In this document: in pieces, positions 653 to 20,662 of the stretch | Layout of the letters: each line of letters starts with the position of its first letter | How positions within the stretch are numbered: the first letter of the stretch is position 1 | IMG/VR virus record: IMGVR_UViG_3300042904_000017 | Location: 1-43,158 of that record | Length of the DNA: 43,158 bases | Direction: 5' to 3' (one strand) | Origin: a virus | Lineage: Duplodnaviria > Caudoviricetes | Position numbers and translations under genes: made by a program | Notes under the pieces: model-generated | What the model was told of the DNA's origin: nothing | Seen by the model: the letters and a program-made list of their open reading frames with translations, nothing else | The model's database searches: none

Positions 653-673
653 GACAACCACTAGGAGCTAATC

Positions 674-1139: not shown

Positions 1140-1178
1140 CACATAGTTCCACATAAGGAACAATTGCAACTAGGAGAT
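1140..1178 (+). promoter_or_regulatory. Operator palindrome GTTCC-N6-GGAAC overlapping a weak phage-promoter-like motif and an RBS
   Basis: gttcc acataa ggaac at 1146; CCACATAAGGA matches the promoter core. Confidence 0.5.
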
Positions 1179-3448: not shown

Positions 3449-3451
3449 GCG

Positions 3452-3539: not shown

Positions 3540-3590
3540 ATTGAAACAATAAATTTCCACAATCGGAACTGTTCCGTTACAGTGACTACA
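3540..3590 (+). promoter_or_regulatory. Sigma70-like early promoter 2 with operator units; paralogous to promoter 1
   Basis: TTCCAC(3555)-17 bp-TACAGT(3578); shares attgaaa...cacaatcg..actgttccg with 342-377. Confidence 0.6.
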
Positions 3591-3708
3591 TCGCATCTGC
3601 AAATGTTCCTGATGCGGGGCTGACCGGAGCCTAGTTCAAACGCCGGGGCATCGTGCGGACGCCCAATCGGGACAAGCGATGCACCTAGAACCCTCGCTGC
3701 GGTGAGGG

Positions 3709-3751
3709 CCTAGGAGTGAGGGTCCCACGGTGGGGCCTTCATCACTAGGAG
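3709..3751 (+). promoter_or_regulatory. 43-bp hairpin element (RNase III-site-like), copy 1
   Basis: CCTAGGAGT-stem-loop-ATCACTAGGAG. Confidence 0.55.
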
Positions 3752-3761
3752 GCAATACAGA

Positions 3762-4508: not shown

Positions 4509-4556
4509 CACCTCAGGGCTCCCTTCGGGGAGTCCCCTTAGCCTCCCCACGGAGGC

Positions 4557-4599
4557 CCTAGGAGTAAGCCTCGGATGGTCCGGGGTTTATCACTAGGAG
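4557..4599 (+). promoter_or_regulatory. 43-bp hairpin element (RNase III-site-like), copy 2
   Basis: Same ends and length as 3709-3751 with a different but still paired stem. Confidence 0.55.
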
Positions 4600-4824
4600 C
4601 GTTAGTGGTTCGCTAACCATATCCCCCACCTACCACCTAAAACGCGTGGGGAGTCTGTTGAAATTAGAACACGTCTTTGTCATAGATTTCTCACGGAATG
4701 TAACACAGCAACTAACGATGAAGCACGGAAATGTAGTCTTACTCCTACAACTGCATGGCAATACTTGCAGAATAAAATAAACCATCGCCTCGTGGAGGCG
4801 AACTTCTTCTAAGGACAAACGAGT

Positions 4825-5031
4825 ATGTTCATTAAACTGTGGGGCCTGGAGATTTTTGCCGAGATCGTTCCTATTGCGGAAAAATTCATTGACCGGTACA
4901 ATTCCTCAGACGAAAATCATTTCTGGTTCGGACCGCTCCATGTGGTCTGGAACCACACAGGAGAGAAAAATGAATGGGGAAAAGAAGATGGAATCACTGA
5001 TGGCAGCCCTGGAAACGTTCCGGGGCCTTGA
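4825..5031 (+). CDS. Hypothetical protein
   Basis: AAGGA RBS; overlaps the start of the next gene. Confidence 0.45.
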   Translation: MFIKLWGLEIFAEIVPIAEKFIDRYNSSDENHFWFGPLHVVWNHTGEKNEWGKEDGITDGSPGNVPGP

Positions 5032-5296
5032 TCCCGACATGCCGATGGCAATGGCCCTCAGCCTCTTGGTCATTTCCAAGAACGAGGGTCTAAGCCTGAA
5101 GGAGCTTGCCGAGAAGGTAGGCATCGGGATGGCTTCGGTGTCCCGCTACGTTGCCTTCTTCGGCAAGCCCAACGCCTCCGGCAAGAAGGGGTTGGGCCTG
5201 GTGGTCGCCGTTGAGGACCCTCTGGAGCGCCGTAAGAAGACCATCACGCTCACCGCCAAGGGCCGGGCAGTGATCGCCAAACTGGAGGCCGCCTGA
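4970..5296 (+). CDS. MarR-like winged-helix DNA-binding protein (candidate repressor or directionality factor)
   Basis: HTH LSLKELAEKVGIGMASVSRYV and wing DPLERRKKTITLTAKG; GGAG RBS; stop overlaps the int1 start. Confidence 0.85.
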   Translation: MNGEKKMESLMAALETFRGLDPDMPMAMALSLLVISKNEGLSLKELAEKVGIGMASVSRYVAFFGKPNASGKKGLGLVVAVEDPLERRKKTITLTAKGRAVIAKLEAA

Positions 5297-6348
5297 TGCC
5301 CATCAAAAAGAGAGGGAACTCCTACCAGGTCACTGTCGGCTCTGGGAAGAACCGCTACCGCCAGATGTTCCCGGACGAGGGGGACGCCAAGCAGGCGGAG
5401 CTGGACGAGATCAAGCGTAGGAAACTTCAGGGGACCTCAGTGGCCCCGAAGCCAGCGAGCGAGACCCCCAAGGGTAAGACCCTACAGGAGGCTTACGATC
5501 TGACCTTGCGCCTGCACTGGAAGGGCACCGCTGCCGAGAAGACCCACAAGATCAACTCGAAGGCCGTTCTGGACTTCCTCGGGAGGGACACCCCGCTGAC
5601 CAGCATCACATCGGAGATGGTCAACGAGATGATCTTCGAGTTCGAGGATCAGGGGAACTCCGGCTCCACGGTGAACAAGAAGGGCTCCTGCCTGCGGATG
5701 ATGTTCAAGACCGCAGTGGAGCAAAAGTGGGTCAAGGAGTTTCCCAACCCGCCATTCCGCAAAGAGGCCAAGCACCGCATCCGGTGGATGGACGAGGCGG
5801 AGGAGGGGAGGGTCCTGGCCCTGTGTGACCACCTCGGACTGAGCGACCTGAAGGACTACATCATCGTCGCCATCGACACAGGCTTCCGCCGTGGTGAGAT
5901 GCTGGGGTTCAAGCCTCAGGACTTCTCGAACGGCCTCCTGCACCTCCACGAGGGGGAGACCAAGACGGAGGAAGCGAGGTCCGTGCCGGCCACCAGGCGG
6001 GTCACCGAGGTCCTCAACCGCAGGTCCAACAGGCCGTACACCTTCTACCCCCTTACGGTGTACACTCTGCGCGCCCAGTGGGAGTACCTGCGGGAGCTGC
6101 TGCAGATGCAGGCGGACCCACAGTTCGTGGTCCACATGCTCCGGCATACCTGCGCGTCCCGCCTGGTGCAACGTGGGGTGCCCCTGGCGATGGTCCAGAA
6201 GTGGATGGGCCACAAGAAGATCGAGACCACGCTGCGGTACGCGCACCTGGCCCCGAACAGCCTGCTGATAGGGAAGGAAGCCCTGGAGCAGGGCGCAACG
6301 ACGATAACCCCGCTGGAGGCCCCTGAGCTGGCCGAAGTGGACTTTTAA
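5296..6348 (+). CDS. int: Tyrosine integrase 1 (typical position for temperate T7-like phages, upstream of RNAP)
   Basis: DTGFRRGE, TKT, HMLRH, WMGH, RYAHL catalytic motifs. Confidence 0.95.
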   Translation: MPIKKRGNSYQVTVGSGKNRYRQMFPDEGDAKQAELDEIKRRKLQGTSVAPKPASETPKGKTLQEAYDLTLRLHWKGTAAEKTHKINSKAVLDFLGRDTPLTSITSEMVNEMIFEFEDQGNSGSTVNKKGSCLRMMFKTAVEQKWVKEFPNPPFRKEAKHRIRWMDEAEEGRVLALCDHLGLSDLKDYIIVAIDTGFRRGEMLGFKPQDFSNGLLHLHEGETKTEEARSVPATRRVTEVLNRRSNRPYTFYPLTVYTLRAQWEYLRELLQMQADPQFVVHMLRHTCASRLVQRGVPLAMVQKWMGHKKIETTLRYAHLAPNSLLIGKEALEQGATTITPLEAPELAEVDF

Positions 6349-6357
6349 GGAGGGCTT

Positions 6358-6513
6358 ATGCAGCCACAGATCAAATGGACCGGATACTGCTGGTGGTGTT
6401 CCACCCCGGACGGCCGCTATCAGGACGGTGCCCCTGGAACTTCACCTGAGGACGCCTTCAAGCGGTGGGAGGCTCTGAGGACTCCACCTAAGCCCTGGTG
6501 GAAGCTTTTCTGA
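6358..6513 (+). CDS. 51-aa hypothetical protein ending KPWWKLF
   Basis: AAGGAGG RBS; not in the supplied track because it is under 60 aa. Confidence 0.7.
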   Translation: MQPQIKWTGYCWWCSTPDGRYQDGAPGTSPEDAFKRWEALRTPPKPWWKLF

Positions 6514-6522
6514 GGAGGGCAC

Positions 6523-6723
6523 ATGCACCCGCAGACAAGAGATGAGCTGAACCAGCTCCACGGGAAGGTGCAGGACCTGGAAGCGGAGATCACCAACGCC
6601 GCAGCCCAAGCCCTGGACAACGAGAAGGACCTGACCACCTTCAAGCTGGAGGTCATGGCGAAGCTCGAAGAAATGAGCAAGAAGATCGACCAGATACACA
6701 AAATCGTCCACTACGGGCGCTGA
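6523..6723 (+). CDS. Small coiled-coil protein
   Basis: GAGGAGG RBS; heptad pattern. Confidence 0.75.
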   Translation: MHPQTRDELNQLHGKVQDLEAEITNAAAQALDNEKDLTTFKLEVMAKLEEMSKKIDQIHKIVHYGR

Positions 6724-6724
6724 C

Positions 6725-7017
6725 GTGTGCCCATTATGTGCCCGCGATGTGCCCGATAAGAGTCCGATTCGCCCCCTCCCAGGACAAATTCCTCAATCTT
6801 TTCAACGCTGAACCAGATTGAGGTGCTAGTCCCCGAAAGGGGGTGGAAGTTCGAGTCTTCTTGACCGCACCAGACTTTTCCACGAAGGGGAACCTAAGAA
6901 TCCACACGGATTTCAATAGGTTCCCCTTCTTTTTCGCCAGATAGTTGCAAATGTGGAAGTGTTCCTGACATGCATAACTTGCATGGCAGGTGTGCCCGCT
7001 GACACGCGATGTGTCCG
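6725..7017 (+). other. attP1: 55-bp core equal to the 3' half of tRNA-Leu(GAG) (6818-6872), with RTGTGCCC arm repeats
   Basis: Anticodon loop TTGAGGT, variable arm cccc-gaaa-gggg, T-arm ggaag-ttcgagt-cttct, TGACCGC-A-CCA; no 5' half; arm repeats at 6725, 6736, 6747, 6990, 7009. Confidence 0.9.
6884..6934 (+). terminator. Strong terminator downstream of the attP1 core
   Basis: 13-bp perfect stem gaaggggaaccta/taggttccccttc plus T5. Confidence 0.8.
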
Positions 7018-7069
7018 CCCGGCTTAGACTCAATTGATTCCTATATTGCAACTGTTCCTCCATTGCAGC
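6944..7069. promoter_or_regulatory. Operator-like arrays upstream of the RNAP gene
   Basis: GTTSC-N6-GSAAC-like units at 6944/6961/6978 and 7037/7054. Confidence 0.55.
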
Positions 7070-7082
7070 CACATAAGGATAG
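7060..7082 (+). promoter_or_regulatory. Phage RNAP promoter candidate upstream of the RNAP gene
   Basis: CCATTGCAGCCACATAA|GGATAG matches the repeated motif. Confidence 0.6.
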
Positions 7083-7173
7083 ACCGAGGGTGAACCTGAA
7101 GGGTACATCCTAAGTATTCATCTTCAATAGATTAAACCTATTGGAGAGACATCTATAGATAATCTACAAGCGG

Positions 7174-9726
7174 ATGACTATGACCACCGAACACAACAAC
7201 GAACCAGAAGACCTGATCGAGACACAACTCCGTCTGGAAGAGGAAATGACTCAGCGAGGCGCTGACCGTTTCATCCGCAATACGGCCAAGGCCCTGGAGG
7301 GTGGGCGGGAAGAACAGACAGCTTACGGTCGCACGATCTTGGCCGGTCGCGTTGAGAAGCTGGCCCAGGCCATCGGAGCCTGGCAGACGGCCACGGCTGA
7401 AGGTGCACCTGGTCTCCGCAACTCCGCAGCGTTCCGCCTGATCGGCACCCACGATGCCCGTGTGTTGTCCTTCCTGACCCTCAAGAACGTCCTGAGCGGT
7501 CTCTCATCCCCGCGTACGGTTCAGTACGTAGCTGTTGCCATCGGCACGGCCATTGAGGACGAGGCCCGGTTCGCTGCCATCCGCGAAGGCGAGCGGCACA
7601 TCTACGACCGAATCGTGAAGGGCTCGAAGAAGCGCACCTCCGCCCGCTACAAGCACATCTACGCAACCCGCGTGGCCGACAACCACGACGAGTGGCAAGG
7701 CTGGACCCGCACTGACCGCCTACACGTAGGGGTCAAGCTGCTGGACATCATGATGCAGTCCATCGGCCTGATCGAGGTGGGCACGAACGGGGAGGGCACC
7801 GAAAAGGCCCTGAAGTACGTGAAGCCGCTCCCGAGCACCCTGGAATGGATCGAGAGGAAGAACGCGGCCACGGCCCTGCTGCGGCCTGTCTATGAGCCGA
7901 TGGTAGTGCAGCCCCGCGACTGGACCACCCCGTATGACGGTGGCTACCTGTCCTCCGACATCAAGCCGCTGGTGATGGTCAAGACCAAGAACCGAGCGTA
8001 CCTGGAGGAGCTGACCTCCGTGGACATGCCGATTGTCTACGATGCCCTGAACGCCATCCAGCGCACGGCCTGGCAGATCAACAGCCAGGTGCTGGAGGTC
8101 ATGCGGACCTTCTGGGACCACGGCACGGTGATCGCAGGGATGCCCCCGCGTGAGGGCCTGGCGCTGCCACCGAAGCCCCACGACATCGACACGAACGCCG
8201 AGGCCCAGGCGGAGTACCGCAAGGCTGCCTTCAAGGTCCACTCGGAGAACCTGTCACTGCTGGGCAGCCGGATCGGCTTCAACATGACCCTGGACATCGC
8301 CGGTCGCTACGAGAAGTACCGCAAGATTTTCTTCCCGTACCAGCTCGATTTCCGTGGGCGCATCTACGCGGTCCCGCACATCAACCCGCAGGGGCCTGAC
8401 TACCAGAAGGGGCTCCTCAGGTTCGCCAACGGGAAACCGCTGGGGGAGGATGGATGGAAGTGGCTGGCCGTGCATGGGGCCAACGTGGCGGGCTACGACA
8501 AGGCCAGCCTGGAAGACCGTGTTCACTGGGTATTGGAGAACGAAGATGAAATCCTACGAATTGCTGCTGACCCATACGGAAACCGTGGGTGGGCAGACAC
8601 TGTTGGCGGGGTGGGGATCGACAAGCCGTGGCAATTCCTTGCTTTTTGCTTCGAGTGGGCCGGATATGCTCAGCACGGAGAGTCTTTCGTCTCCAAGATA
8701 CCCGTGGCTATGGACGGTAGCTGCTCTGGCATTCAACACTTTTCCGCTATGCTCCGAGACGAAAAGGGTGGAGCTGCCGTCAATCTGGTCCCGCAAGACC
8801 TCCCGGCCGATGTCTACCGCCAAGTCTCCGACCTGGTGACCAAGTGGGCTCAGTCGGATGCCACCAACGGGACCGAGGACACGCTGAAGCACGGCCAGGA
8901 CGGCACCCCATACGTGGTGGCCGGGAGCAAAACCCTGGCCCAGCAGTGGCTGGCCTTCGGGATCAACCGCAAGGTCACCAAGCGCTCCGTGATGACCCTG
9001 GCCTACGGCTCCAAGCAGTACGGCTTCAAGGAGCAGCTCATGGAGGACATCCTCTGGCCTGCCAAGCGGGCAGCCACGCGACCTGACGGCACCGTGGACC
9101 ACGAGAAGTTCCCGTTCGCCAACGATGGCTTCGCTGCTGCGGTCTACATGGCGGAGATGATCTGGGGTGCGGTGAACCAGGTGTTGGTCAAAGCCGGTGA
9201 GGCAATGGCCTGGCTCCAGGAGGCAGCCAGCCTGGCCGCGAAGGAGGGACTGCCGGTCCGCTGGACGACCCCGGTGGGCTTCCCGGTGATGCAGGCTTAC
9301 CCGGCCCTGGCCGAGCGCAGGATACAGACCGCTATCAACGGCACCGTCCTGCGGCTCGTGATGAACCAGGAGAAGGAAGGCTTGGACAGCCGGAAGCAGA
9401 GCCAGGGGATCAGCCCGAACTTCGTGCACTCCTGTGATGCGTCCCACCTCATGCTGACCGTGAGCCGCGCCAAGCAGGCCGGGATCAACTCCTTTGCGAT
9501 GATCCACGACTCGTTCGGGACCACCGCAGGGGACACCGAGAAGCTGTACCACGTTGTCCGCGAGGCGTTCATCGAGATGTACACCGAGGTGGATGTCCTC
9601 GGGAACTTCCGGGATGAGCTGAAGGGGCAGCTCAGCGAGAAACTGCAGAAGAAACTGAAGCCGCTCCCAGAGAGTGGCACCCTGGACCTTTCCGCCGTAG
9701 CGGATAGCCGGTTTTGTTTCGCCTAA
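7174..9726 (+). CDS. gp1: Single-subunit DNA-directed RNA polymerase
   Basis: DFRGRIY, DGSCSGIQH, RKVTKRSVMTLAYGS, PNFVHSCD, IHDSFGT, C-terminal FCFA. Confidence 0.99.
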   Translation: MTMTTEHNNEPEDLIETQLRLEEEMTQRGADRFIRNTAKALEGGREEQTAYGRTILAGRVEKLAQAIGAWQTATAEGAPGLRNSAAFRLIGTHDARVLSFLTLKNVLSGLSSPRTVQYVAVAIGTAIEDEARFAAIREGERHIYDRIVKGSKKRTSARYKHIYATRVADNHDEWQGWTRTDRLHVGVKLLDIMMQSIGLIEVGTNGEGTEKALKYVKPLPSTLEWIERKNAATALLRPVYEPMVVQPRDWTTPYDGGYLSSDIKPLVMVKTKNRAYLEELTSVDMPIVYDALNAIQRTAWQINSQVLEVMRTFWDHGTVIAGMPPREGLALPPKPHDIDTNAEAQAEYRKAAFKVHSENLSLLGSRIGFNMTLDIAGRYEKYRKIFFPYQLDFRGRIYAVPHINPQGPDYQKGLLRFANGKPLGEDGWKWLAVHGANVAGYDKASLEDRVHWVLENEDEILRIAADPYGNRGWADTVGGVGIDKPWQFLAFCFEWAGYAQHGESFVSKIPVAMDGSCSGIQHFSAMLRDEKGGAAVNLVPQDLPADVYRQVSDLVTKWAQSDATNGTEDTLKHGQDGTPYVVAGSKTLAQQWLAFGINRKVTKRSVMTLAYGSKQYGFKEQLMEDILWPAKRAATRPDGTVDHEKFPFANDGFAAAVYMAEMIWGAVNQVLVKAGEAMAWLQEAASLAAKEGLPVRWTTPVGFPVMQAYPALAERRIQTAINGTVLRLVMNQEKEGLDSRKQSQGISPNFVHSCDASHLMLTVSRAKQAGINSFAMIHDSFGTTAGDTEKLYHVVREAFIEMYTEVDVLGNFRDELKGQLSEKLQKKLKPLPESGTLDLSAVADSRFCFA

Positions 9727-9729
9727 TCA

Positions 9730-9784
9730 CTTCCTAATTTGCAACTATCACAGCCGGGGAAGCATTCCTGCCACATACGGATAA
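9730..9784 (+). promoter_or_regulatory. Operator units plus phage RNAP promoter
   Basis: Units at 9730/9747/9764; GCATTCCTGCCACATAC|GGATAA at 9762. Confidence 0.7.
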
Positions 9785-9826
9785 ACGAGCCGAGCCCCGG
9801 CTGACCACCTGTCACTGAGACTACCT

Positions 9827-9991
9827 ATGACCGAGATCGAAATCGAACGCGAGTACCACGACCGTACTCCTGAGCTGAAGCGCGCAATCAACCAATGGAA
9901 ACACGGGAACACCATCCCGCTGGACCTGGCGGTTGCTTTGATGGAGCAGGGCCACGACGTTGAGTCCCTCGCTGCCAAGTACCGAAACTAA
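9827..9991 (+). CDS. 54-aa hypothetical protein
   Basis: Read manually: [54 protein letters not shown]; typical codon usage. Confidence 0.7.
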
Positions 9992-10007
9992 CCCCAACAC
10001 ACACGAT

Positions 10008-10685
10008 ATGGCAGAAAAGAAACAGAAGAACTTCCAGGCTACCACCCCTCGCGGCATCTTCCGCTACCCGGCCCTGGACAAACCCGACTTCGGTAACGAG
10101 GAGTTTCCGAAGCCCCAGGGCGTCTACAAGGTCCAGCTCATCCTGACTGAGCAGGAGGCTGAACCACTGATCGCCAAGCTGGCCCCCCTGTACGACCAGG
10201 CCGTGGCCGAAGGCAATGAGAAGTTCAAGGGCCTGAAGGTTGAGCAGCGCAAGAAGCTGAAGGAACTGAAGGTCAACGACCTGTACGCCCAGGAGTACGA
10301 CCGCGAGACCGAGGAGCCTACCGGCAACCTGATCTTCAAGTTCGAGATGAACGCCTCCGGCGAGAACAAGAAGGGCGAGAAGTACACCCGCAAGCCAGCC
10401 ATCTTCGATGCCAAGGGCAAGCCGATGGTGAAGGTCCCGTCCATCTGGGGTGGCACCGAGGGCAAGGTGTCGTTCGAGGCCGTCCCGTACTTCATCGCAG
10501 GCACTGGTGCCGCTGGCCTGAAGCTACGCCTGAACGCTGCCCAGATCATCGAGCTGGTCTCTGGTGGTCAGCGAGCTGCGAGCGACTACGGCTTCGGTGA
10601 GGAAGACGGCTTCGAGGCCGGTGACCAGACCGAGGAAGATACCCCGTTCAAGGACGAAAGTGGTAGCGGCGAAGAAGAGTTCTAA
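10008..10685 (+). CDS. gp2.5: Single-stranded DNA-binding protein
   Basis: PDF...[26 protein letters not shown]; acidic tail ending in F. Confidence 0.95.
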
Positions 10686-11094
10686 GGCTTCGCTGACTGC
10701 CCGCCAGGTGGCCCTGAAGTACGGCTTCAGGTCCGGCCTGGAGGAGAAGATCGCAGGAACGCTCACCTCGAAAGGGGTGGGCTTCACGTATGAGGAACTA
10801 ACGATCCCTTACGTGGCTCCCGCAAAGCCTCATAAGTACACCCCAGACTTCGTGCTGGACAACGGCATCATCATCGAGAGTAAGGGCCGCTTCGAGACCG
10901 CAGATCGGCAGAAGCACCTGCTGGTAAAAGCCCAGCACCCCCACCTCGACATCCGTTTCGTCTTCAGCTCATCGAAGGCCAAGATCAACAAACGGAGCAC
11001 CACGACTTACGCGAACTGGTGCGAGAAGAATGGCTTCCTCTACGCAGACAAGGAAATTCCTGAGGCGTGGCTGAAGGAGCCTAAGAAAACATGA
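10660..11094 (+). CDS. gp3: Endonuclease I (Holliday junction resolvase)
   Basis: [29 protein letters not shown]; likely GTG start at 10660. Confidence 0.95.
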
Positions 11095-11543
11095 GTTACG
11101 ACGCAAAGACTAAGAACCGTGTACGCACGGAGTACCTGGCGATTCATTGCAGTGCCACCCGCCCGTCCCAGGATGTTGGCGCTTCGGACATCGACCGATG
11201 GCACCGCCAGCGTGGATTCGCTTGCATCGGATACAACTACGTGATCCGCCGTGATGGCACCGTGGAGAATGGACGCCCGCGTGATCAGATCGGCGCGCAT
11301 GTGGAAGGCTGGAACTCCGTGTCCCTGGGCATCTGCATGGTAGGAGGGGTCTCCGAGAAGGAAGCGAATGCCCCGGAGAACAACTTCACCAAGGAGCAGT
11401 TCGAGTCCCTGAAGAAGCTCCTGCTGGAGCTGCGCAAGGTGTACCCGAAGGCGCACATCCAGGGCCACCGAGATTTCCCGAAAGTGAATAAGGCGTGTCC
11501 GAGTTTCCAGGTATCGACCTGGCTGAAAGAAGTTGGAATCTAA
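11091..11543 (+). CDS. gp3.5: N-acetylmuramoyl-L-alanine amidase (T7 lysozyme-like)
   Basis: IHCSAT, IGYNYVIRRDG, GAHV, GHRD, KACPSF. Confidence 0.97.
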   Translation: MSYDAKTKNRVRTEYLAIHCSATRPSQDVGASDIDRWHRQRGFACIGYNYVIRRDGTVENGRPRDQIGAHVEGWNSVSLGICMVGGVSEKEANAPENNFTKEQFESLKKLLLELRKVYPKAHIQGHRDFPKVNKACPSFQVSTWLKEVGI

Positions 11544-11931
11544 GCAGTGTCCTAGGTGCCTCCAGGAGAGGCCCGCGAGTGAGTTCTACAAAGCCGCAAG
11601 TGGAAACCCTGGAGGCCAGTGCAAACAGTGCCGGTCTAAAGTGTCCCGAGAGAAGTACGGCACGGACCCCGCCAGCATCCTGGCACCGAGATACGGAATC
11701 ACGGTAGCGACCTTAAACGGAATTCTGGATGAGCAATCGTTTCTCTGTGCGATTTGTGAGGAACCTCTCCGGGGAGGCCGCTACCAGGCCATCGACCATG
11801 ACCACACTTCAGGGAAGGTTCGAGGGGTTCTCTGCGCCTCTTGCAATACCGCCATCGGCAAATTGAAAGATGATCCAGAAATAATTCGCCGCGCCGCAGA
11901 CTATGTGGAGCGGCATAAATTCCCCAACTGA
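11533..11931 (+). CDS. Endonuclease VII-like (HNH-fold) free-standing endonuclease
   Basis: CAIC...IDHDH...VRGVLCASCN plus N-terminal CxxC pairs; more AT-rich codons. Confidence 0.85.
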   Translation: MESKQCPRCLQERPASEFYKAASGNPGGQCKQCRSKVSREKYGTDPASILAPRYGITVATLNGILDEQSFLCAICEEPLRGGRYQAIDHDHTSGKVRGVLCASCNTAIGKLKDDPEIIRRAADYVERHKFPN

Positions 11932-11941
11932 AAAGGACCGT

Positions 11942-12070
11942 ATGAAAGACCTGAACAAGTACCAGCGCCCGACCTTCGAGCAATACGAAGCACTGAAGCA
12001 GAACAAACGGAGCATCCGCCAAGCTGGCTTGTTCCGTCTGGATGCACGTGCCCGGCTGGTGACCAAGTAA
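11942..12070 (+). CDS. 42-aa basic protein
   Basis: AAGGA RBS; MKDLNKYQRPTFEQYEALKQNKRSIRQAGLFRLDARARLVTK. Confidence 0.65.
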   Translation: MKDLNKYQRPTFEQYEALKQNKRSIRQAGLFRLDARARLVTK

Positions 12071-12090
12071 TCCCTGCCACATACGGATAA
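12068..12090 (+). promoter_or_regulatory. Phage RNAP promoter
   Basis: TAATCCCTGCCACATAC|GGATAA; 18 bp identical to the 9767 copy; aligns with the T7 promoter format. Confidence 0.75.
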
Positions 12091-12170
12091 GGGAGCCGAT
12101 CCCTCATCCGGTGTTTCCTTTCATCTCCTAGTAGTACTTCGGGCTGGCCTTCGGGCTGGCCCTCTTTTTT
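12085..12170 (+). ncRNA. Predicted ~86-nt small RNA
   Basis: Promoter +1, 5' hairpin, unpaired C/U-rich tract, UUCG terminator hairpin plus T6; no ORF. Confidence 0.45.
12141..12170 (+). terminator. Terminator hairpin with cUUCGg loop
   Basis: gggctggcc-ttcg-ggctggccc then tctttttt. Confidence 0.65.
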
Positions 12171-12179
12171 CTGGGCGAC

Positions 12180-13811
12180 ATGCAAGACACTGAAAGCGTT
12201 CTCGTCCGTAAGGAGCCGTGTCCTTCATGTGGCTCCCGAGACAACCTCGCAAGATATTCCGATGGTCACGCCTACTGCTTTTCCCAGGGGTGCGGCCACT
12301 ACGAACGTGGTGATGGCGAAGCCCACACCAGCACAACAAAGAAAGCACGAATGGAAGGACTGATCGCCGGGGAATACAAGCCCCTGCTGAAGCGCAAGAT
12401 TACCGAGGAGACCGCACGCAAGTTCGGTTACCAGGTTGGCGAATACAAAGGGAAGGTGGTCCAGCTTGCACCATACTACGATGCCTCAGGCACGATGGTC
12501 GCGCAGAAGGTCCGCTTCGCTGACAAAGGGTTCACCGTAGCGGGGGACTCCAAGGCCATCTCAGGAATCCTCTTCGGCCAGAACCTCTGGAACTCCGGGA
12601 AGAAGATCGTGATCACCGAGGGTGAGATCGATGCGATGACCGTGAGCCAGGTGCAGGGCAATAAGTGGCCCGTGGTCTCCGTCCCGAACGGTGCCCAGGG
12701 TGCCAAGAAGTCCCTCAGCAAAGCCCTCGAATACCTGAACGGGTTCGAGGAGATCATCCTGATGTTCGACATGGACGAACCTGGCAAAGCCGCTGCTGCG
12801 GAGTGCGCCGAACTGTTCGCTCCCGGCAAGTGCAAGATTGCTGCATTGCCGATGAAGGACCCCAACGAGTTACTGCAGGCGGGACGAGAGCAGGACATCA
12901 TCACTGCGATCTGGAACGCCAAGGCGTACCGGCCCGATGGCCTAGTGAACGTGATCGACTTACGGGAGGAGATGAAGAAGCCCACCGAAATGGGCCTCCC
13001 GTGGTTTCTCGATGAACTCACTCACCTCACCTATGGCAGGCGCTATGGGGAGGTCTATGGCCTCGGTGCCGGTACTGGGGTGGGGAAGTCTGACTTCCTC
13101 GCTCAGCAAATCTCATTCGACATCACGGTCCTCAACCAGCGCGTAGGCACGATCTTCCTGGAGCAGAAGCCCACGGAGACCGGCAAGCGTGTGGCTGGCA
13201 AGATCGCTGGCAAACGCTTCCACGTCCCCAACGCAGGCTGGACGGAAGAGGAGCTGGACTCTGCGGTCAACGCACTGGGTGACAACCTGGTCCTCTATGA
13301 CTCCTTCGGGGAAACCGAGTGGGACGTAGTGAAAGCGAAGGTCCGCTTTATGGCTCTCTCCGAGGGCATCAAGCTGATCTACATCGACCACCTCACGGCA
13401 ATGGCAGACACCGCCGATGAGAAGGGCAGCCTCGAACAGATCATGAAGGAGATGGCGGGCCTGGCCCAAGAGCTGGGCGTGATCATCCACTTCGTGAGTC
13501 ACCTCACGACCCCCGAGGGGAAACCCCACGAGGAAGGCGGAAGGGTCTCCATCAGACACTTCAAGGGCTCCCGAGCAATCGGCTTCTGGTCCTACTTCAT
13601 GTTCGGCCTGGAGCGTGACCAGCAGGCGGAAGACCCAGTGGTCCGCCAAACAACACTCCTCCGCATCCTGAAGGACCGCTACACCGGCCAAGCAACTGGT
13701 GAGGTGATCTACCTGGCCTACGACAAGGACACCGGCCTCCTTTCAGCAACAGAAGCGCCCAAGCAAGCAAACCCCTTCAAAGACGAAACCGGCACACCTG
13801 CCGAATTTTAA
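12180..13811 (+). CDS. gp4: DNA primase/helicase
   Basis: Zn finger CPSC...C...C, TOPRIM EGEIDA/DMD, Walker A GTGVGKS, IDHL; possible internal start at Met 12351 as in T7 4B. Confidence 0.98.
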   Translation: MQDTESVLVRKEPCPSCGSRDNLARYSDGHAYCFSQGCGHYERGDGEAHTSTTKKARMEGLIAGEYKPLLKRKITEETARKFGYQVGEYKGKVVQLAPYYDASGTMVAQKVRFADKGFTVAGDSKAISGILFGQNLWNSGKKIVITEGEIDAMTVSQVQGNKWPVVSVPNGAQGAKKSLSKALEYLNGFEEIILMFDMDEPGKAAAAECAELFAPGKCKIAALPMKDPNELLQAGREQDIITAIWNAKAYRPDGLVNVIDLREEMKKPTEMGLPWFLDELTHLTYGRRYGEVYGLGAGTGVGKSDFLAQQISFDITVLNQRVGTIFLEQKPTETGKRVAGKIAGKRFHVPNAGWTEEELDSAVNALGDNLVLYDSFGETEWDVVKAKVRFMALSEGIKLIYIDHLTAMADTADEKGSLEQIMKEMAGLAQELGVIIHFVSHLTTPEGKPHEEGGRVSIRHFKGSRAIGFWSYFMFGLERDQQAEDPVVRQTTLLRILKDRYTGQATGEVIYLAYDKDTGLLSATEAPKQANPFKDETGTPAEF

Positions 13812-13819
13812 GGACCACT

Positions 13820-14056
13820 ATGAAATCCATCATCGCTTTCTTCCAGTCCCTGACCTCCCCGACTACCACCACCTCCGCCATCGCCAACCTGGACCGCGCC
13901 ATCGCCAAGCTGAAGCGTGCTGAGGAGAACCACGCGGACGCCTACGACCAGCACCTGTACGCTGCAGAGGAACACCAGGCCGCAGCAGACAAGCACTACG
14001 CTGCCTCCGAGCGTGCTGGCCGCATCGCCGCCAAGCTGGAAGACCTGCTGGCCTGA
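13820..14056 (+). CDS. Small coiled-coil hypothetical protein
   Basis: AAGGA RBS; Ala-rich helical sequence. Confidence 0.8.
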   Translation: MKSIIAFFQSLTSPTTTTSAIANLDRAIAKLKRAEENHADAYDQHLYAAEEHQAAADKHYAASERAGRIAAKLEDLLA

Positions 14057-14057
14057 T

Positions 14058-14579
14058 ATGAACCTCCAGGACCAGTTGTACTTCTTCCGGGAGATTCTCC
14101 AGGAAGTGCAGGTCATGTTCCCTGGGGCCACTGCCGTGATCGGTGGTGGTGCCCTGCGGGACGCCTACCATGACCGACCCATCAAGGACGTGGATGTCTT
14201 CCTACGCGCAAAGGACTTCCCGAACGGCCTGAACCACCGCCTGATCAAGCAGCTCATTCCACCTTCGGTGTCCAGCTACGCACTGCGTTCGGACATGCAC
14301 GGTGTCTACGACTGCCTGCCACTGATGCAAGGCTACCAGGTGCAGTTCATCCTGGCCGACTTCAATGACCGCATCGACTTGGCAAACACCTTCGACCTTG
14401 GCCTGAGCCGCATCACATATGACGGCAACAAACTCTACCTCCACCCGGACTTTGTTGAGGACTCGGATGCCAAGCAGTTCCGCATCCTCCGTGCTGACGA
14501 TGACGGCCAAACCATCCGCAGCGAACGGCGCATCGACCGCCTGCTGACCAAATACCCTGACTTCAAGAGAGCCGCATGA
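14058..14579 (+). CDS. Nucleotidyltransferase (CCA-adding/poly(A) polymerase head-domain-like)
   Basis: IGGGALRD...KDVDVF signature and FDL. Confidence 0.85.
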   Translation: MNLQDQLYFFREILQEVQVMFPGATAVIGGGALRDAYHDRPIKDVDVFLRAKDFPNGLNHRLIKQLIPPSVSSYALRSDMHGVYDCLPLMQGYQVQFILADFNDRIDLANTFDLGLSRITYDGNKLYLHPDFVEDSDAKQFRILRADDDGQTIRSERRIDRLLTKYPDFKRAA

Positions 14580-14743
14580 AATCCATCACCTTCCGTACCC
14601 TAGCAACTGCCGCCTTGGCCGTTGCCATCGTTCCGTTCGTCCTCGCGGTCCTACTGGCAAGCGCTGCCGAAGGCAGTTTCAAGCGCACGTTGAAGGACAC
14701 TCCAGAAGCCATCAAGGCTCTGTTCCAGGTCATCTGGGAATAA
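14576..14743 (+). CDS. 55-aa membrane protein
   Basis: ATGA overlap; hydrophobic segment LATAALAVAIVPFVLAVLLA. Confidence 0.65.
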   Translation: MKSITFRTLATAALAVAIVPFVLAVLLASAAEGSFKRTLKDTPEAIKALFQVIWE

Positions 14744-14755
14744 CCGAAGGACGGC

Positions 14756-16804
14756 ATGAGGCTATTCGACATCGAGACCGATGGCCTCCTCGATTCCGTC
14801 ACCAAGATACACTGCCTGGTCATCCGTGACCTGGATACCCAGCAGACCTTCCGCTGTATCCCCGCAGGGTTCCCTATGGTGGCGGAGCTGACCATTGAGC
14901 AGGGCCTAGAGCTGCTGTCCAAGGGTCCCATCGGGGGCCACAACGTCATCAAGTACGACATCCCCGTCCTCAAGAAGCTGTACCCGAAGTGGACCTACGA
15001 GAAGCACCTGGTGTTCGACACCTTGCCCGCTGTCCGTGTGATCTGGTCCAACATCAAGGACCACGACAATGGTCTGCTGAAGAAGCAGCAGCTCCCCGGC
15101 ACCCTGTACGGGAGCCACTCCCTGGAAGCTTGGGGTTACCGCCTGAAGCTGATGAAAGGGGAGTACGCCTCCGAGTTCAGAGCCCGAGCTGGTGACGACT
15201 ACCAGCCAGGCGATGAGTGGAAGTTCCTCTCCCAGGAGATGCTCGACTACTGCGTCCAGGACGTGGTGGTTACTGAGGCCCTGTACCTCCGCATCCTCGG
15301 GAAGAATTATTCCCTGGAAGCTCTGGAACTCGAGCACAAGATTGCCTGGCTCATGGCCCAGCAGGAGCGCAACGGGTTCCCCTTCAATTCCGCTGCAGGT
15401 GCCCTGCTGTACGCCAAGCTGGCCCAACGCCGTGGCGAGCTGGAGCGGGAGCTGCGTGACTACTTCAAGTTCTGGTACGCACCGGACGGGAAGGTCCGCC
15501 ACCCGACCACCCGCAAGGTCTTCCACGAGTACCCCGATGGTCCCGCGCAGAGGCGCGTCAAGCTGAAAGGCAAGGACGCCTACTACCAGCAGGGCTACTA
15601 CGAGGAGTTCACCGAGGGCTGTCCGTACACCGCCATCAAGGTGGTGGAGTTCAACCCAGGGTCCCGTGATCACATCGCCAACCGGCTCCAGAAGCTGTAC
15701 GGCTGGGAGCCCGAGGAGTTCACTGACGGTGGTAAGCCGAAGGTGGACGAGAACACCGTAGGCGACCTTCCGTATCCCCCGGTCCCGCTACTCACCGAGT
15801 ACCTGACGGTAGCCAAGCGCATCTCTCAGCTCGCTGAGGGTGACCAAGCGTGGCTGAAGGTAGAACGCAACGGGAAGATTCACGGGTCCGTCAATCCGAA
15901 TGGAGCAGTAACTGGACGTGCAACACACGCATACCCCAACATCAGCCAAGTCCCAGCCTCAGGGTCCCTCTACGGGCACGAGTGCCGGGAACTCTTCTGT
16001 GTCCCGCCAGGCTGGACGCAGGTTGGCGCTGATGCTTCTGGCCTGGAGCTACGCTGTCTCGCTCACTTCATGGCTCGCTATGATGGGGGCAAATACGCTG
16101 ACCTGGTAGTCAACGGTGATGTTCACTGGCTGACCGTCCAGGCATTCGGTGTCATTGATGGGCCACGGGACAAGACGAACAAGCTACACGACTTGTACCG
16201 CGACTATGCCAAGACTTTCATCTACGGTTTCCTGTATGGAGCTGGCGATGCCAAGGCAGGCAAGATCATCTACAGCATGATCCAGGCAGCAAGGCTGAAG
16301 GGCTTTGACACAACCCACATGGTCAATGTGTTCTTTGGCGGGAAGGAAGTCCCGACCTCTGAGGACCTAGCGACCACCGGGAAACGCTTGAAGAAATCCT
16401 TCCTGAAGAAGCTGCCTGCCCTGAAGCTGCTGATCAACGCAGTGAAAGAGGCTGCCAAGAAGGGCTACCTCCGTGGTCTGGACGGCCGCCTGGTTCACGT
16501 GCGGTCCCCTCACGCTGCCCTCAACACCCTGCTGCAATCCGCAGGTGCCCTGCTCTGTAAGCAATGGCTGGTGTTCCTCAACGAGGATCTCGACGCCAAG
16601 GGCCTGCAGAACGGCTGGGTGGACTACGCCAACATGGCATGGTCGCACGATGAAGTGCAGTACGCCTGCCGAACCCCTGAGATCGCACAGACCATCCGCG
16701 AGACCGCCGAAGCCTGCGTGACCAAGGCCGGTGAGCATTTCAACTTCCGCTGCCCTCTGGCTGGCGAATCCAAGATCGGCACCAACTGGTCCGAAACCCA
16801 CTGA
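14756..16804 (+). CDS. gp5: Family A DNA polymerase with 3'-5' exonuclease
   Basis: FDIETDG, HSLEAWGYRL, FNPGSRDHI, DASGLELR, AKTFIYGFLYG, HDE. Confidence 0.99.
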   Translation: MRLFDIETDGLLDSVTKIHCLVIRDLDTQQTFRCIPAGFPMVAELTIEQGLELLSKGPIGGHNVIKYDIPVLKKLYPKWTYEKHLVFDTLPAVRVIWSNIKDHDNGLLKKQQLPGTLYGSHSLEAWGYRLKLMKGEYASEFRARAGDDYQPGDEWKFLSQEMLDYCVQDVVVTEALYLRILGKNYSLEALELEHKIAWLMAQQERNGFPFNSAAGALLYAKLAQRRGELERELRDYFKFWYAPDGKVRHPTTRKVFHEYPDGPAQRRVKLKGKDAYYQQGYYEEFTEGCPYTAIKVVEFNPGSRDHIANRLQKLYGWEPEEFTDGGKPKVDENTVGDLPYPPVPLLTEYLTVAKRISQLAEGDQAWLKVERNGKIHGSVNPNGAVTGRATHAYPNISQVPASGSLYGHECRELFCVPPGWTQVGADASGLELRCLAHFMARYDGGKYADLVVNGDVHWLTVQAFGVIDGPRDKTNKLHDLYRDYAKTFIYGFLYGAGDAKAGKIIYSMIQAARLKGFDTTHMVNVFFGGKEVPTSEDLATTGKRLKKSFLKKLPALKLLINAVKEAAKKGYLRGLDGRLVHVRSPHAALNTLLQSAGALLCKQWLVFLNEDLDAKGLQNGWVDYANMAWSHDEVQYACRTPEIAQTIRETAEACVTKAGEHFNFRCPLAGESKIGTNWSETH

Positions 16805-16811
16805 GACAACT

Positions 16812-17027
16812 ATGTTCCGAAATCCAAAACTGAAGGAGGTCCTGAAGCGGACCTACCTGTTCCCGTACAAGCTCCAATCGGACTACGCGCGGGACAACGC
16901 CATCGAGATCGCCGCACTGGCCTGCGCTGGCTACATCTCCACCCGCACGGACCCAGGCCAGTTCGGCAACAAGTGGCGCATCACCGGCATCGGCATCGAG
17001 AAGCTGCGGAAGCTGGGGGCACTATGA
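16812..17027 (+). CDS. gp5.7: T7 gp5.7-like protein
   Basis: QSDYARDNA...GYIST...WRITGIG resembles T7 gp5.7; syntenic. Confidence 0.75.
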   Translation: MFRNPKLKEVLKRTYLFPYKLQSDYARDNAIEIAALACAGYISTRTDPGQFGNKWRITGIGIEKLRKLGAL

Positions 17028-17326
17028 GCAAGCGCCCAGAGACCGTTCATATCCTGGGCCGCAACTACTCCATCACCTACGACCTGGACAATGGCGACTT
17101 CGGCTCCTGTGACACCATGGAGAACGAGATCGAGGTCCGTGAAGGTCTCCCTCCGATGGAGGAGCGGGACACCGTGCTGCACGAGATCATGCACGGCATC
17201 TGGGCAGTGATGGATGTGGGCCACACGAAGGTGGAGGAACACGTCATCCGCAAGATGGCTACCGGCCTGGCCCTGGTGTTCCAACACAACCCCGAGCTGG
17301 TCTCCTATCTGGGGGCCAAGGAATGA
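17024..17326 (+). CDS. Small HExxH metallopeptidase-like protein
   Basis: DTVLHEIMHGI motif and downstream EE. Confidence 0.75.
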   Translation: MSKRPETVHILGRNYSITYDLDNGDFGSCDTMENEIEVREGLPPMEERDTVLHEIMHGIWAVMDVGHTKVEEHVIRKMATGLALVFQHNPELVSYLGAKE

Positions 17327-18057
17327 GGGTCGCGCTGATCGATGCGGACGTGGTTGCCTTCCAGTCCGCAGTGGTCAACGAGAAGGCCATCGACTGGGGT
17401 GAAGGTGTGTGGACCCAGCACGCCCACGAGGAGGACGTGATCCGCTCCTTCCGTGCCAGCGTGAACTCCATCCAGGAAGCCGTGGGTGCCGATAAGGTGA
17501 TCCTCGCGTTCTCCGACAAGACCAACTGGCGTAAGGACGTGCTGCCTTCCTATAAGGCGAACCGCGCGAACACCCGCCAGCCGATGCTCCGCAAGTTCAT
17601 CACGGAGTGGGCCAAGGAGAACTACGAGAGCTTCACACGGGACACCCTGGAGGGTGACGATGTGCTGGGTATCCTGGCGACCCGCAAGTCCCAGGACGAG
17701 ATGATCATCTGCACCATCGACAAGGACATGAAGACCATCCCCGGCCAGCACTACAACTTCGGCAAGAAGGAGGTCTTCGAGGTCACTGAGGAGGAGGCTG
17801 ATTACTGGCACCTCTACCAGACCCTGGTGGGTGACGCGACCGACAACTACGCAGGGTGCCCCGGTGTGGGCCCTGTGGCTGCCAAGAAGGTTCTCGACAA
17901 GGACCCGAGCTGGGCCGGTGTGGTGAAAGCTTTCGACAAGGCAGGGTTGGGCGAAGAAGAAGCCCTGACCCAGGCCCGAGTAGCGCGCATCTGCCGCGCC
18001 TCGGATTACGACTTCAAGACAAAACAAGTGAAACTATGGTCCCCAAATACGAAGTAG
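17323..18057 (+). CDS. gp6: 5'-3' exonuclease
   Basis: LIDAD, YKANR, LEGDDVLG, DKD, GDATDNYAGCPGVG. Confidence 0.96.
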   Translation: MRVALIDADVVAFQSAVVNEKAIDWGEGVWTQHAHEEDVIRSFRASVNSIQEAVGADKVILAFSDKTNWRKDVLPSYKANRANTRQPMLRKFITEWAKENYESFTRDTLEGDDVLGILATRKSQDEMIICTIDKDMKTIPGQHYNFGKKEVFEVTEEEADYWHLYQTLVGDATDNYAGCPGVGPVAAKKVLDKDPSWAGVVKAFDKAGLGEEEALTQARVARICRASDYDFKTKQVKLWSPNTK

Positions 18058-18686
18058 GTCAGAAGGTCCGAGTGGTTGCCAACAAGGCTGGACATCAATT
18101 CGAGATCGGCTCAATGGTTGAAGTGCTTAAGGTGCTGGAGGGAGACCAGAATGTATACGACCTCTCCATTCAAAAAGAGGGCTATCCTCGCTGGTACGGC
18201 TACGAGTCCGACCTGGCGCCGCTGGAGGTGGAAGCTTCCCCAGCCAAGGACACCAACCCCAAGGACGCCATCGCTGCATCCAAGCTGCCCCTGAACGTGG
18301 TCCCGGATACCCTGAAGGTCTATGCCACTCTGGCGTTCACCGAGGGTGCCCTGAAGTACGGCTCGATGAACTGGCGTGTGGCTGGTGTCCGTGCGTCCAT
18401 CTACAAGGCCGCGCTGGAGCGCCACCTGGCGAAGTACTGGAACGGTGAGTGGGCTGACCCGGTGACCGGTGTTCCCCACCTGGCCTCCGTGATCGCCTGC
18501 GCTGGCATCATCCTGGACGCGAATGCTGCAGGTAAGCTGACCGATGATCGCCCTCCGGCAATCCCTCTGGCTGGAATCATCGATGGCCTGGAGCCTGCCG
18601 TGAAGCACCTGCAGGAACTCTTTAAGGACAAGCATCCGCATCACCACACGGAAGCGGACAAGCTGGGCCCAGTGATCCCGAAGTAA
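18036..18686 (+). CDS. dATP/dGTP diphosphohydrolase domain (DUF5664-like) protein with N-terminal KOW/SH3-like segment
   Basis: TNPKD...K.PL...EGALKYG..NWR...RHL...D..TGVPHL. Confidence 0.8.
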   Translation: MVPKYEVGQKVRVVANKAGHQFEIGSMVEVLKVLEGDQNVYDLSIQKEGYPRWYGYESDLAPLEVEASPAKDTNPKDAIAASKLPLNVVPDTLKVYATLAFTEGALKYGSMNWRVAGVRASIYKAALERHLAKYWNGEWADPVTGVPHLASVIACAGIILDANAAGKLTDDRPPAIPLAGIIDGLEPAVKHLQELFKDKHPHHHTEADKLGPVIPK

Positions 18687-18688
18687 TT

Positions 18689-18711
18689 CGATTCCAACCA
18701 CAATAGGACTA
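18689..18711 (+). promoter_or_regulatory. Phage RNAP promoter candidate before the virion genes
   Basis: CGATTCCAACCACAATA|GGACTA. Confidence 0.5.
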
Positions 18712-18716
18712 TCGCA

Positions 18717-18908
18717 ATGTCCAAGACCCCATTCCCGATGGTCCCGAAGGTATTGATCGAGGCCCTCGAAAAGCGATTCCGGGACACCGTTCCCACAAAC
18801 CCTAAGACATCCCTGGAAGACTTCCGACTCCTCCAGGGTCAACTGTCTGTGGTCCAGTTCCTGAGGCACCAATACGAGGAGCAGACCAAAAATATCTTGG
18901 AGAGTTAA
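18717..18908 (+). CDS. Conserved hypothetical protein before the portal cluster
   Basis: 63-aa ORF; AGGA RBS. Confidence 0.75.
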   Translation: MSKTPFPMVPKVLIEALEKRFRDTVPTNPKTSLEDFRLLQGQLSVVQFLRHQYEEQTKNILES

Positions 18909-18911
18909 TCC

Positions 18912-19124
18912 GTGTGTAGTGCACCCAAACCCCCGCCAGCTCCTCCGCCTCCAGCTCCTCCTCCACCGCCTGTAATGCCCAACGTGCTGCAGACGGCTGC
19001 CTCCTCGGAGGGCTCGAAGAACTCGAATGCTGGTGGCACCAATAAGGGCCGCAAGTCCCTGCGCATCGACCTGGCTACGTCCACCGCCGGTGGCGCTTCC
19101 GGCCTGAACCTGCCGACTAGCTGA
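18912..19124 (+). CDS. Small virion protein (gp6.7/7.3-like)
   Basis: MC start, Pro-rich, GRKSLRI motif; directly before the portal gene. Confidence 0.7.
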   Translation: MCSAPKPPPAPPPPAPPPPPVMPNVLQTAASSEGSKNSNAGGTNKGRKSLRIDLATSTAGGASGLNLPTS

Positions 19125-19132
19125 GGCCGCGC

Positions 19133-20662
19133 ATGGCAACCAAGAGCGCGTCTTCCCTTTACGCGAAGTGGAAGACCGACCGGGAGCCTTTCCTAAGGCG
19201 AGCCCGTGAATGCTCCGCACTGACCATCCCGACCCTGATCCCTCCTGAAGGACACACCGGTTCCTCCGACCTGCCCACCCCATGGCAGTCTATTGGTGCC
19301 CGTGGGGTGAACCACCTGGCAGCCAAGATGCTGATGTCCCTGCTGCCGGTGAACTCCCCGTTCTTCCGCTACTCGATTGACGACTTCACCCTGGAGCAGC
19401 TCACGCAGCAAGAGGGCATGAGGGCCAAGGTAGAGGAGGGCCTGAACAAGAGTGAGCGTGCAGTCCAGAACGAGATCGAAGCGAGTGCCGTTCGCGTGTC
19501 CTCCTTCGAGGCCCTGAAGCATCTCCTCACTGGTGGCAACATCCTGCTGTACCTCCCACCGGAGGGTGGCATGAGGACCTTCCACCTGAGCCGCTACGTG
19601 GTCCGCAGGGACCCGATGGGCAACGTCCTCGACATCATCGTGGAAGAGGAGATCGACCGCGATGTCCTGCCTGAGGCGATGCAGCTCCCGCCTGAGGAAG
19701 GCGACAAGAGCGATGAGCCGGTGAAGATTTACACCTGGGTCAAGCGTGTCGGTCGCAAGTGGACTGTGCACCAGGAAGTGAAGGACCTGATGGTCCCCGG
19801 CTCCCAGGGCACCTACCCACTCGACAAGTCCCCATGGATTCCCGTGCGGTTCACCAAGATCGACGGTGAGAACTACGGGCGTGGCTACGTGGAGGAGTAC
19901 CTGGGAGACCTGAAGTCTCTCGAAGGGCTCCAGCAGGCAATCGTGGAGGGAGCTGCAGCAGCAGCCAAGATTCTCTTCCTGGTGAACCCGAACGGTGTCA
20001 CCGACATGGACGACCTGGCGAAGGCCCCCAACGGCGCCTTCCGCGAAGGGATGGAGCAGGACGTGACGGTCCTCCAGCTCCAGAAGTACAACGACTTCCG
20101 TGTGGCCGCTGAGTCGGTCAAAGAGATCACCGAGCGCCTATCCTTCGCCTTCCTCCTGAATTCCTCCGTGCAACGCACTGGCGAGCGAGTGACGGCTGAA
20201 GAGATTCGCTATGTGGCGAACGAGTTGGAATCTGCGCTGGGTGGCATCTACTCCATCCTGTCCCAGGAGTTCCAGCTCCCGCTGGTCAAGCGCATCATCT
20301 ACCAGATGGAGAAGCAGAAGCGTCTGCCGATCCTCCCGGACAAAGCGGTGAAGCCTGTGATCGTGACCGGTCTCGAAGCACTGGGCCGTGGCAATGACCT
20401 GAGCAAGCTTGAGCAATTCGTAGGTGGCCTCGAAGCCATCCCTGATGCGGTCTCCCGGATCAACTGGGGTGACTACATGACCCGCCGTGGCACTGCCCTG
20501 GGCATCGACATCAAGGGCCTGGTGAAGAGTGACGACCAGATCGCTGCGGAGCAGCAGCAGCAACAGATGATGGCCCTAGCAGCACAGGGGCTGAATCCGG
20601 CGATTACCCAAGCCGGTAACCTCATTAAGCAAGGAATGCAGAATGGCGAACCCCCAGCCTAA
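19133..20662 (+). CDS. gp8: Portal (head-tail connector)
   Basis: WQSIGARGVNHLA, YGRGYVEEYLGDL, ERVTAEEIR. Confidence 0.98.
   Translation: MATKSASSLYAKWKTDREPFLRRARECSALTIPTLIPPEGHTGSSDLPTPWQSIGARGVNHLAAKMLMSLLPVNSPFFRYSIDDFTLEQLTQQEGMRAKVEEGLNKSERAVQNEIEASAVRVSSFEALKHLLTGGNILLYLPPEGGMRTFHLSRYVVRRDPMGNVLDIIVEEEIDRDVLPEAMQLPPEEGDKSDEPVKIYTWVKRVGRKWTVHQEVKDLMVPGSQGTYPLDKSPWIPVRFTKIDGENYGRGYVEEYLGDLKSLEGLQQAIVEGAAAAAKILFLVNPNGVTDMDDLAKAPNGAFREGMEQDVTVLQLQKYNDFRVAAESVKEITERLSFAFLLNSSVQRTGERVTAEEIRYVANELESALGGIYSILSQEFQLPLVKRIIYQMEKQKRLPILPDKAVKPVIVTGLEALGRGNDLSKLEQFVGGLEAIPDAVSRINWGDYMTRRGTALGIDIKGLVKSDDQIAAEQQQQQMMALAAQGLNPAITQAGNLIKQGMQNGEPPA

Follow-up and report, generated by a model that had tools for sequence, protein, structure and literature searches.

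A candidate polymerase-dependent antisense RNA that mirrors a ribosome-binding-site tag of early genes in a temperate-type T7-like phage and its relatives

T7-like phages are taken to time the expression of their genes by transcription, and an older question in T7 is why early proteins cease to be made although their mRNA is still present. Phage antisense RNAs acting on phage mRNA are known, P1 c4 RNA being one of the single-gene type. The locus presented here, in which a putative small RNA is complementary to the ribosome-binding sites (RBS) of several early genes, invites comparison with several described systems. As with T4 RegB, the phage's own early mRNAs would be inactivated class-wide via the Shine-Dalgarno (SD) sequence; RegB is an early-made protein endoribonuclease (PMC3014915), whereas a middle-phase RNA made by the phage polymerase is proposed here. 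As with P22 sar, lambda OOP and aQ, a phage RNA would pair with phage mRNA and lower its expression; those RNAs address single regulatory genes, are mostly cis-encoded and bear on the lysis-lysogeny decision (PMC12197685), whereas the present one would be trans-encoded, would reach several genes via one tag and would depend on a T7-type polymerase. The start-associated sequences (SAS) of cluster K mycobacteriophages place an extended tag at the RBSs throughout a block of genes and have an infrequent copy in reverse, their partner, be it RNA or protein, having been left open by the authors (PMC3203893); the phages treated here belong to another family and carry another sequence, and in them the reversed copy is part of a promoter-terminator unit and changes along with the tag. 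Likewise, host-encoded cuckoo RNAs join a C/U-rich anti-SD stretch to an intrinsic terminator, with the motif exposed in the loops of 2-4 hairpins (PMC4615179), whereas the seed in the window lies between hairpins and not in loops. Two host RNAs in Rfam, SorY and MmgR, share the C/U-rich anti-SD stretch and terminator; in a scan of the window no family reached its gathering threshold, SorY (RF02651) scoring 28.5 of the 111 bits needed and MmgR-suhB (RF00519) 24.7 of 41. No description of the element itself was found in the literature searched, which was largely without subscription papers.

The window, i.e. the whole stretch of DNA analysed, is a complete phage genome of 43,158 bp with terminal repeats of 127 bp and a gene order of T7 type (RNA polymerase, SSB, endonuclease, amidase, gene 4, DNA polymerase). 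Beyond the T7 set, this phage of temperate T7-like type encodes a MarR-like regulator and integrases; it was detected in two runs, both soil metagenomes, and may originate there, no RNA run being among the matches listed. The two tyrosine integrases lie at 1905-3221 (minus strand, inside the early region) and 5296-6348 (plus strand), and after the second a tRNA-like 3' piece (~6830-6875) resembles, by eye, an attP site, where ARAGORN found zero tRNA. By RNA polymerase (RNAP) identity the closest cultured relatives are Ralstonia phages (68-73%), Bordetella phage BB8 (67%) and Limnohabitans phage YIMV22061 (56%), while G014, which together with G015 represents distant prophages, is 41% identical. 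In a joined tree of three proteins the window groups with G006, G008, L009, L010, L072 and L098 (support 96/93), and this clade adjoins the Ralstonia group (support 100/100).

Just before gene 4, the window carries a promoter, a hairpin, a pyrimidine-rich tract and a terminator (Table 1), a unit that the first-pass annotation had read as a small RNA gene of the middle phase. Its promoter motif was confirmed; the genome has five such motifs, with cores at 7070, 9772, 12078, 18699 and 42485, the first two preceding the RNAP and SSB genes and the last lying at the right end. The start of transcription is placed at 12085 because this fits the T7/T3 promoter register, and because predicted folds for the majority of the five aligned homologues pair the first four RNA bases with the hairpin's 3' foot. 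Both the 5' hairpin and the terminator appear in the predicted fold of the 86-nt RNA (z -2.81), and the terminator ranks first among all those in 1-20000. The tract between them, said to be unpaired, is predicted to be so for the most part: 12126-12140 comes out open and 12122-12125 falls in a weak 4-bp stem, which leaves 7 of the 10 seed bases open in the window; in L009 the seed is closed in the best predicted fold. The claim that no open reading frame is present holds for the strand of the unit, although a 94-codon frame on the minus strand (11901-12185) overlaps it; a gene was rejected there, the frames differing in length among relatives by eye. In the window, the unit hence has what a small RNA gene is expected to have, namely its own promoter, an intrinsic terminator and no coding frame on its strand. 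The 42-codon frame that ends at the promoter had no Pfam match. An alternative tetraloop hairpin overlapping the 5' arm of the terminator in the window and Ralstonia sequences was also discarded, comprising by eye 3-4 pairs and being lost in L009.

Table 1. Features of the unit, of the early tags and of the genes connected with them (coordinates of the window).
Feature	Position	Strand	Basis
Promoter for the phage RNA polymerase (five in the genome); +1 placed at 12085	12068..12089	+	
Predicted 86-nt small RNA, also leader of the read-through gene 4 mRNA	12085..12170	+	
5' hairpin; homologues vary in sequence and mostly keep the fold	12085..12109	+	
Seed, perfectly complementary to the early RBS tag	12123..12132	+	
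Intrinsic terminator: 9-bp stem, tetraloop, U tract	12141..12170	+	terminator prediction and alignment
T7-type RNA polymerase, which would transcribe the unit	7174..9726	+	annotation
Gene 4 primase/helicase, dependent on read-through of the terminator	12180..13811	+	annotation and promoter scan
42-codon ORF ending at the promoter; comparable small ORFs in relatives	11942..12070	+	
Tag at the RBS of gene 674 (phrog_11104, function not assigned)	660..667	+	
Tag at the RBS of gene 1183 (DUF7249), 10-nt exact match	1169..1178	+	
RNase III-like stem with internal loop; 3' foot carries the tag, RBS of gene 3762	3709..3751	+	
Second RNase III-like stem carrying the tag, without gene start after it	4555..4599	+	

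The place of the unit recalls that of T7 phi3.8, a promoter which also follows the lysozyme gene, has a hairpin at +1 and precedes gene 4, the hairpin being the R3.8 RNase III site. T7 differs in having no annotated terminator at phi3.8 and no shared early tag in the 8-mer test described below. As regards the other promoters, that of the SSB gene (9752-9805) lies between the arms of an inverted repeat, and transcripts from it would begin with the same bases as the unit, in relatives too; this is possibly an origin or an antitermination signal. None of the five lies directly before the capsid gene, unlike in T7; a long structured non-coding leader (22250-22480), conserved across the clade and without an Rfam family at gathering, stands 5' of the major capsid gene, and the same position is occupied in L004, L006, L007 and L227. 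Within it, a tract at 22305 forms, by eye, an 8-nt mirror of the gene 431 RBS.

What sets the tract apart is its relation to the early genes. As had been claimed, its 10-nt seed and positions 1169-1178 are perfect reverse complements of each other (a 10-nt complement also lies inside gene 4, at 12967), and the 8-nt tag ACTAGGAG occurs on the plus strand at 660, 1169, 3744 and 4592 and nowhere else. All four copies fall in the first 4.6 kb, against 0.26 expected by chance in the genome. Those at 660, 1169 and 3744 are the RBS of genes starting with the ATGs at 674, 1183 and 3762, while the copy at 4592 has no ATG start downstream. Of 20000 shuffled tracts, 30 attained a run of 8 nt at each of the three starts; these were 30 of the 4252 shuffles that preserved the anti-SD core. 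Neither annotation nor domain and profile searches assigned a known function to the target genes. Elsewhere in the early region, a local hairpin at 1754-1779 pairs an anti-SD stretch with the RBS of gene 1784 itself.

The tags at 3744 and 4592 form the 3' feet of long stems with internal loops, overlooked in the first-pass annotation and presumably RNase III sites given their likeness to the early sites of T7, and comparable stems with tags on their feet are found in the Ralstonia phages, BOESR1 and G006 (those folded). For the leader of gene 3762, the computed net binding of the RNA amounts to -13.6 kcal/mol once the stem has been cut, and to -5.9 as long as it is intact; five middle and late leaders range from -4.3 to -9.9. 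That tags sit on stem feet, and that the one at 4592 is not followed by a gene start, would suit an account in which pairing is real yet acts mainly on RNA processing or decay, by invading the stem foot or by marking the 5' ends of early mRNAs for degradation. Such an account is unlikely, however, for the tags at 660 and 1169 lie outside stems of this kind, binding to the intact stem is weak, and the seed of the Ralstonia phages follows the RBS-side strand of the stem and not its 5' strand. Binding energy by itself is a poor guide to targets: ranked by the duplex energy of the whole tract, the tagged starts of the window do not come first (1183 is fifth of 64), and this ranking was abandoned as unspecific. 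Moreover, the untagged early leaders of genes 431 and 1784 bind in the model comparably to the tagged ones, and therefore the target set may be wider.

Further evidence comes from relatives, in which covariation of seed and RBS had been proposed beforehand as a check, and in which each tract of the window and Ralstonia phages turned out to mirror its own tag. Three Ralstonia phages lack ACTAGGAG and carry instead CACTGGAG at 7, 5 and 7 early starts, with a mirror at the equivalent place; CACTGGAG is in turn missing from the window, and the orthologous seeds differ by the one base that matches the change in the tag. When 14 tracts were scored against 10 target sets by their mean perfect run, tracts on their own starts reached 8.7 nt in the window, 9.3 in PY04L1 and 8.6 in P-PSG-11 (8.6-9.7 nt over own pairs), whereas exchange between the window and the Ralstonia phages lowered the run to 5.0-5.1 nt (window), 4.7 (PY04L1) and 4.0 (P-PSG-11). 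High values off the diagonal occur where tags are shared, as with the window tract on the starts of phage LUZ100 (10.0), the YIMV22061 tract on Ralstonia starts (9.2-9.6) and the L072 tract on that of G006 (12). In the distant prophage G014 a different word, GGAGTAAC, is present in 4 copies, all at early starts, and is mirrored once, just 5' of a terminator; G015 has it at 2 early starts and a mirror likewise, both mirrors and terminators lying downstream of the amidase. The YIMV22061 tract mirrors the RBS of the RNAP gene over 10 nt, the sole such 10-mer in that genome. The structured leader of the capsid gene holds an extra mirror of 11-12 nt, not followed by a terminator, in three Ralstonia phages, namely DU_RP_I, P-PSG-11 and BOESR1, the last of which has no other.

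Not all relatives conform. G006 has a third tag, CCAGGAGA, at one start, its early region being possibly incomplete; its own run of 7 nt compares weakly with 5.0-6.3 elsewhere, and the L072 tract matches the G006 start better (12 nt) than does that of G006. The LUZ100 tract shows no match to its own tag (5.5 nt), in BB8 a tag is present in 5 copies with no mirror found, and G008 and L080 retain the unit with the anti-SD core absent. The seed thus appears from these comparisons to be conserved and to co-vary with its targets, LUZ100, BB8 and G008 being exceptions.

Two further explanations can be weighed on these grounds. Since the core is an anti-SD sequence, with some weak Rfam likeness to SorY and MmgR, and the LUZ100 tract lacks a match in its own genome, the RNA might be a general anti-SD RNA directed mostly against host mRNAs, its match to the phage tag being secondary; this seems improbable, for in three lineages the flanks outside the SD core track the tag of the phage itself. 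Alternatively, the tag might be the DNA site of a protein and the mirror one copy in opposite orientation; cluster K mycobacteriophages have one such reversed SAS per genome (PMC3203893). Here, however, the tag overlaps the SD sequence and RNA stems, and the reversed copy falls in the stretch predicted to be open between hairpin and terminator, which makes a DNA site highly improbable.

As to the unit as a whole, its full form (promoter, hairpin, tract and terminator, followed either by gene 4 or by a gene inserted there) occurs in L009, L010, L072 and G006, and its position before gene 4 is constant in the clade of the window; several relatives lack it. A promoter of its own was detected in the window, in these four and in YIMV22061. 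In L098 and the Ralstonia phages tract and terminator are retained directly 3' of a stop codon, and no promoter was seen adjacent to the seed in these or in G014/G015, where the seed likewise follows a stop codon. All 9 pairs of the terminator are kept in 5/5 aligned homologues, two of them with changes on both sides, while the 5' hairpin is conserved more loosely. A covariance model built from the five full-length copies and searched over 69 sources recovered L098 and three Ralstonia phages as orthologues (E 2e-6 to 4e-5), with weaker matches in G008/L080 (0.003-0.013), LUZ100 and G010 (0.09) and L044 (0.72). At E 1 YIMV22061, L128 and G014/G015 were not matched, and therefore they are counted as analogues and not as demonstrated homologues. 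The available sequences of L009, L010, L072, L098 and L128 do not include the early region. Pattern scans of viral and metagenome contigs returned few further relatives, a genome scan with gene 4 none above 69% identity, and the covariance model found nothing in the one bacterial genome searched. Reads of two DNA runs did not cover the element.

How widespread such pairs are was assessed in 30 genomes, by taking 8-mers common to at least two early starts and seeking their mirror no further than 32 nt upstream of any middle or late terminator. A mirror was found in 6 of the 22 genomes having such a word, against 0.17 expected naively, and reversed, complemented and same-strand words gave 0 matches; the test was not blind, all six cases having been seen previously, and the six represent three lineages. 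Across genomes 31 of 638 comparisons matched, 16 of them between genomes that share a tag, which leaves a background of about 2.4% (15/622 pairs without a shared tag). A blind set of 16 further, distant genomes (three excluded earlier for want of a terminase match) gave 0/13 with a mirror, the shared words there having two copies and once three; the feature is therefore patchy in its distribution, and the count of lineages alone is modest evidence, outweighed by the matched change between the orthologous window and Ralstonia sequences as the stronger piece. A related idea, that an anti-SD core before terminators is a general T7-like trait, was dropped, for it occurs before 108 of 841 terminators, compared with 93 and 145 for two control words. 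Apart from this, the related prophages L099, L100, L105 and L107 have a promoter after the amidase gene, and an anti-SD word with a terminator begins within ~15 nt of it, so that an RNA of ~45 nt could possibly arise; the same arrangement is seen in L158 and L159, prophages in Rhizobium genomes. No match to their own tags was found in G017 and G019.

Both the lack of enrichment of the core before terminators and the relatives without the unit would agree with an ordinary leaky terminator preceded by a pyrimidine-rich spacer, the complementarity being functionless. Leakiness is in any case required: the scan revealed no further phage promoter from 12078 to 18699 that could serve gene 4 and the DNA polymerase, so the terminator must be read through. 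Transcription units of LUZ100 indeed pass through several terminators, some of them promoter-proximal, and at its look-alike of the unit, with a mapped start at 20635, the listed units end at 20828 or later and none stops at the terminator, though the method may lose short RNAs (PMC10134795, Table S7). A terminator of this kind and nothing more is nonetheless improbable, as it leaves unexplained the matched one-base change of seed and tag in orthologues and the case of G014/G015. In LUZ100 (L001, 20633-20708) and also in G010-G012, the annotated gene gp39 overlaps the hairpin-tract-terminator unit and in LUZ100 starts upstream of the mapped phi7 start site; this region is likely a small RNA or leader instead of a gene.

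Read-through, and the constancy of the unit before gene 4 in the window clade, might also point to an attenuator of gene 4 whose tract senses early RNA, binding of which alters termination. Nevertheless, the gap between seed and terminator is shorter than 10 nt, a distance that a fast single-subunit polymerase would presumably cross too quickly for much pairing in trans, and mirrors without a terminator exist in capsid leaders; an attenuator is accordingly very unlikely. The unit is a leader and likely also an RNA gene.

The reading favoured here, to which I assign a probability of roughly 0.6, is that partial termination gives rise to a predicted middle-phase RNA of ~86 nt which blocks the ribosome sites of early genes. 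Covariation and complementarity sustain this part of the original proposal; the discrete RNA is still a prediction, and has to be reconciled with a terminator that leaks. Once middle transcription begins, the phage's own polymerase would transcribe 12085-12170, a fraction of the transcripts stopping at 12170 and the remainder continuing into gene 4. Host RNase III may cleave the early stems so that the tag comes to lie at a free 5' end, whereupon the seed would pair with the tag on early RBSs, exclude the 30S subunit and end translation. Where no adjacent promoter was seen (L098, G014/G015 and the Ralstonia phages), the operon upstream would supply the seed at its 3' end. A lysis-lysogeny lock, also suggested by the first-pass annotation, finds no support: given its need for the phage polymerase, the RNA is unlikely to help maintain lysogeny, and the starts at 4970 and 5296 (MarR-like regulator and integrase) are without the tag, at variance with the repressor, antirepressor or integrase targets of sar/OOP-type RNAs. 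The MarR-like leader shows moderate computed binding (-11.9), and a strong computed duplex with the integrase leader requires a melted terminator.

A broader proposal, which I hold at a little under even odds, is that the tag constitutes a private RBS address, exposed by RNase III and read by one polymerase-dependent antisense RNA, the whole amounting to a switch from early to middle translation made of RNA only, the counterpart in RNA of T4 RegB, mobile between sites and arisen repeatedly, with feedback on the RNAP gene in YIMV22061. Cultured Ralstonia phages that bear the element (DU_RP_I, P-PSG-11 and vRsoP) make it open to small-RNA testing, and a tag and its silencer, if confirmed, would form a compact pair usable in synthetic biology. 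If true, the proposal would also offer RBS tags like SAS a partner; class-wide silencing of early mRNAs would add a translational layer to the timing of T7-like phages, and would bear on how early protein synthesis halts despite persisting early mRNA.
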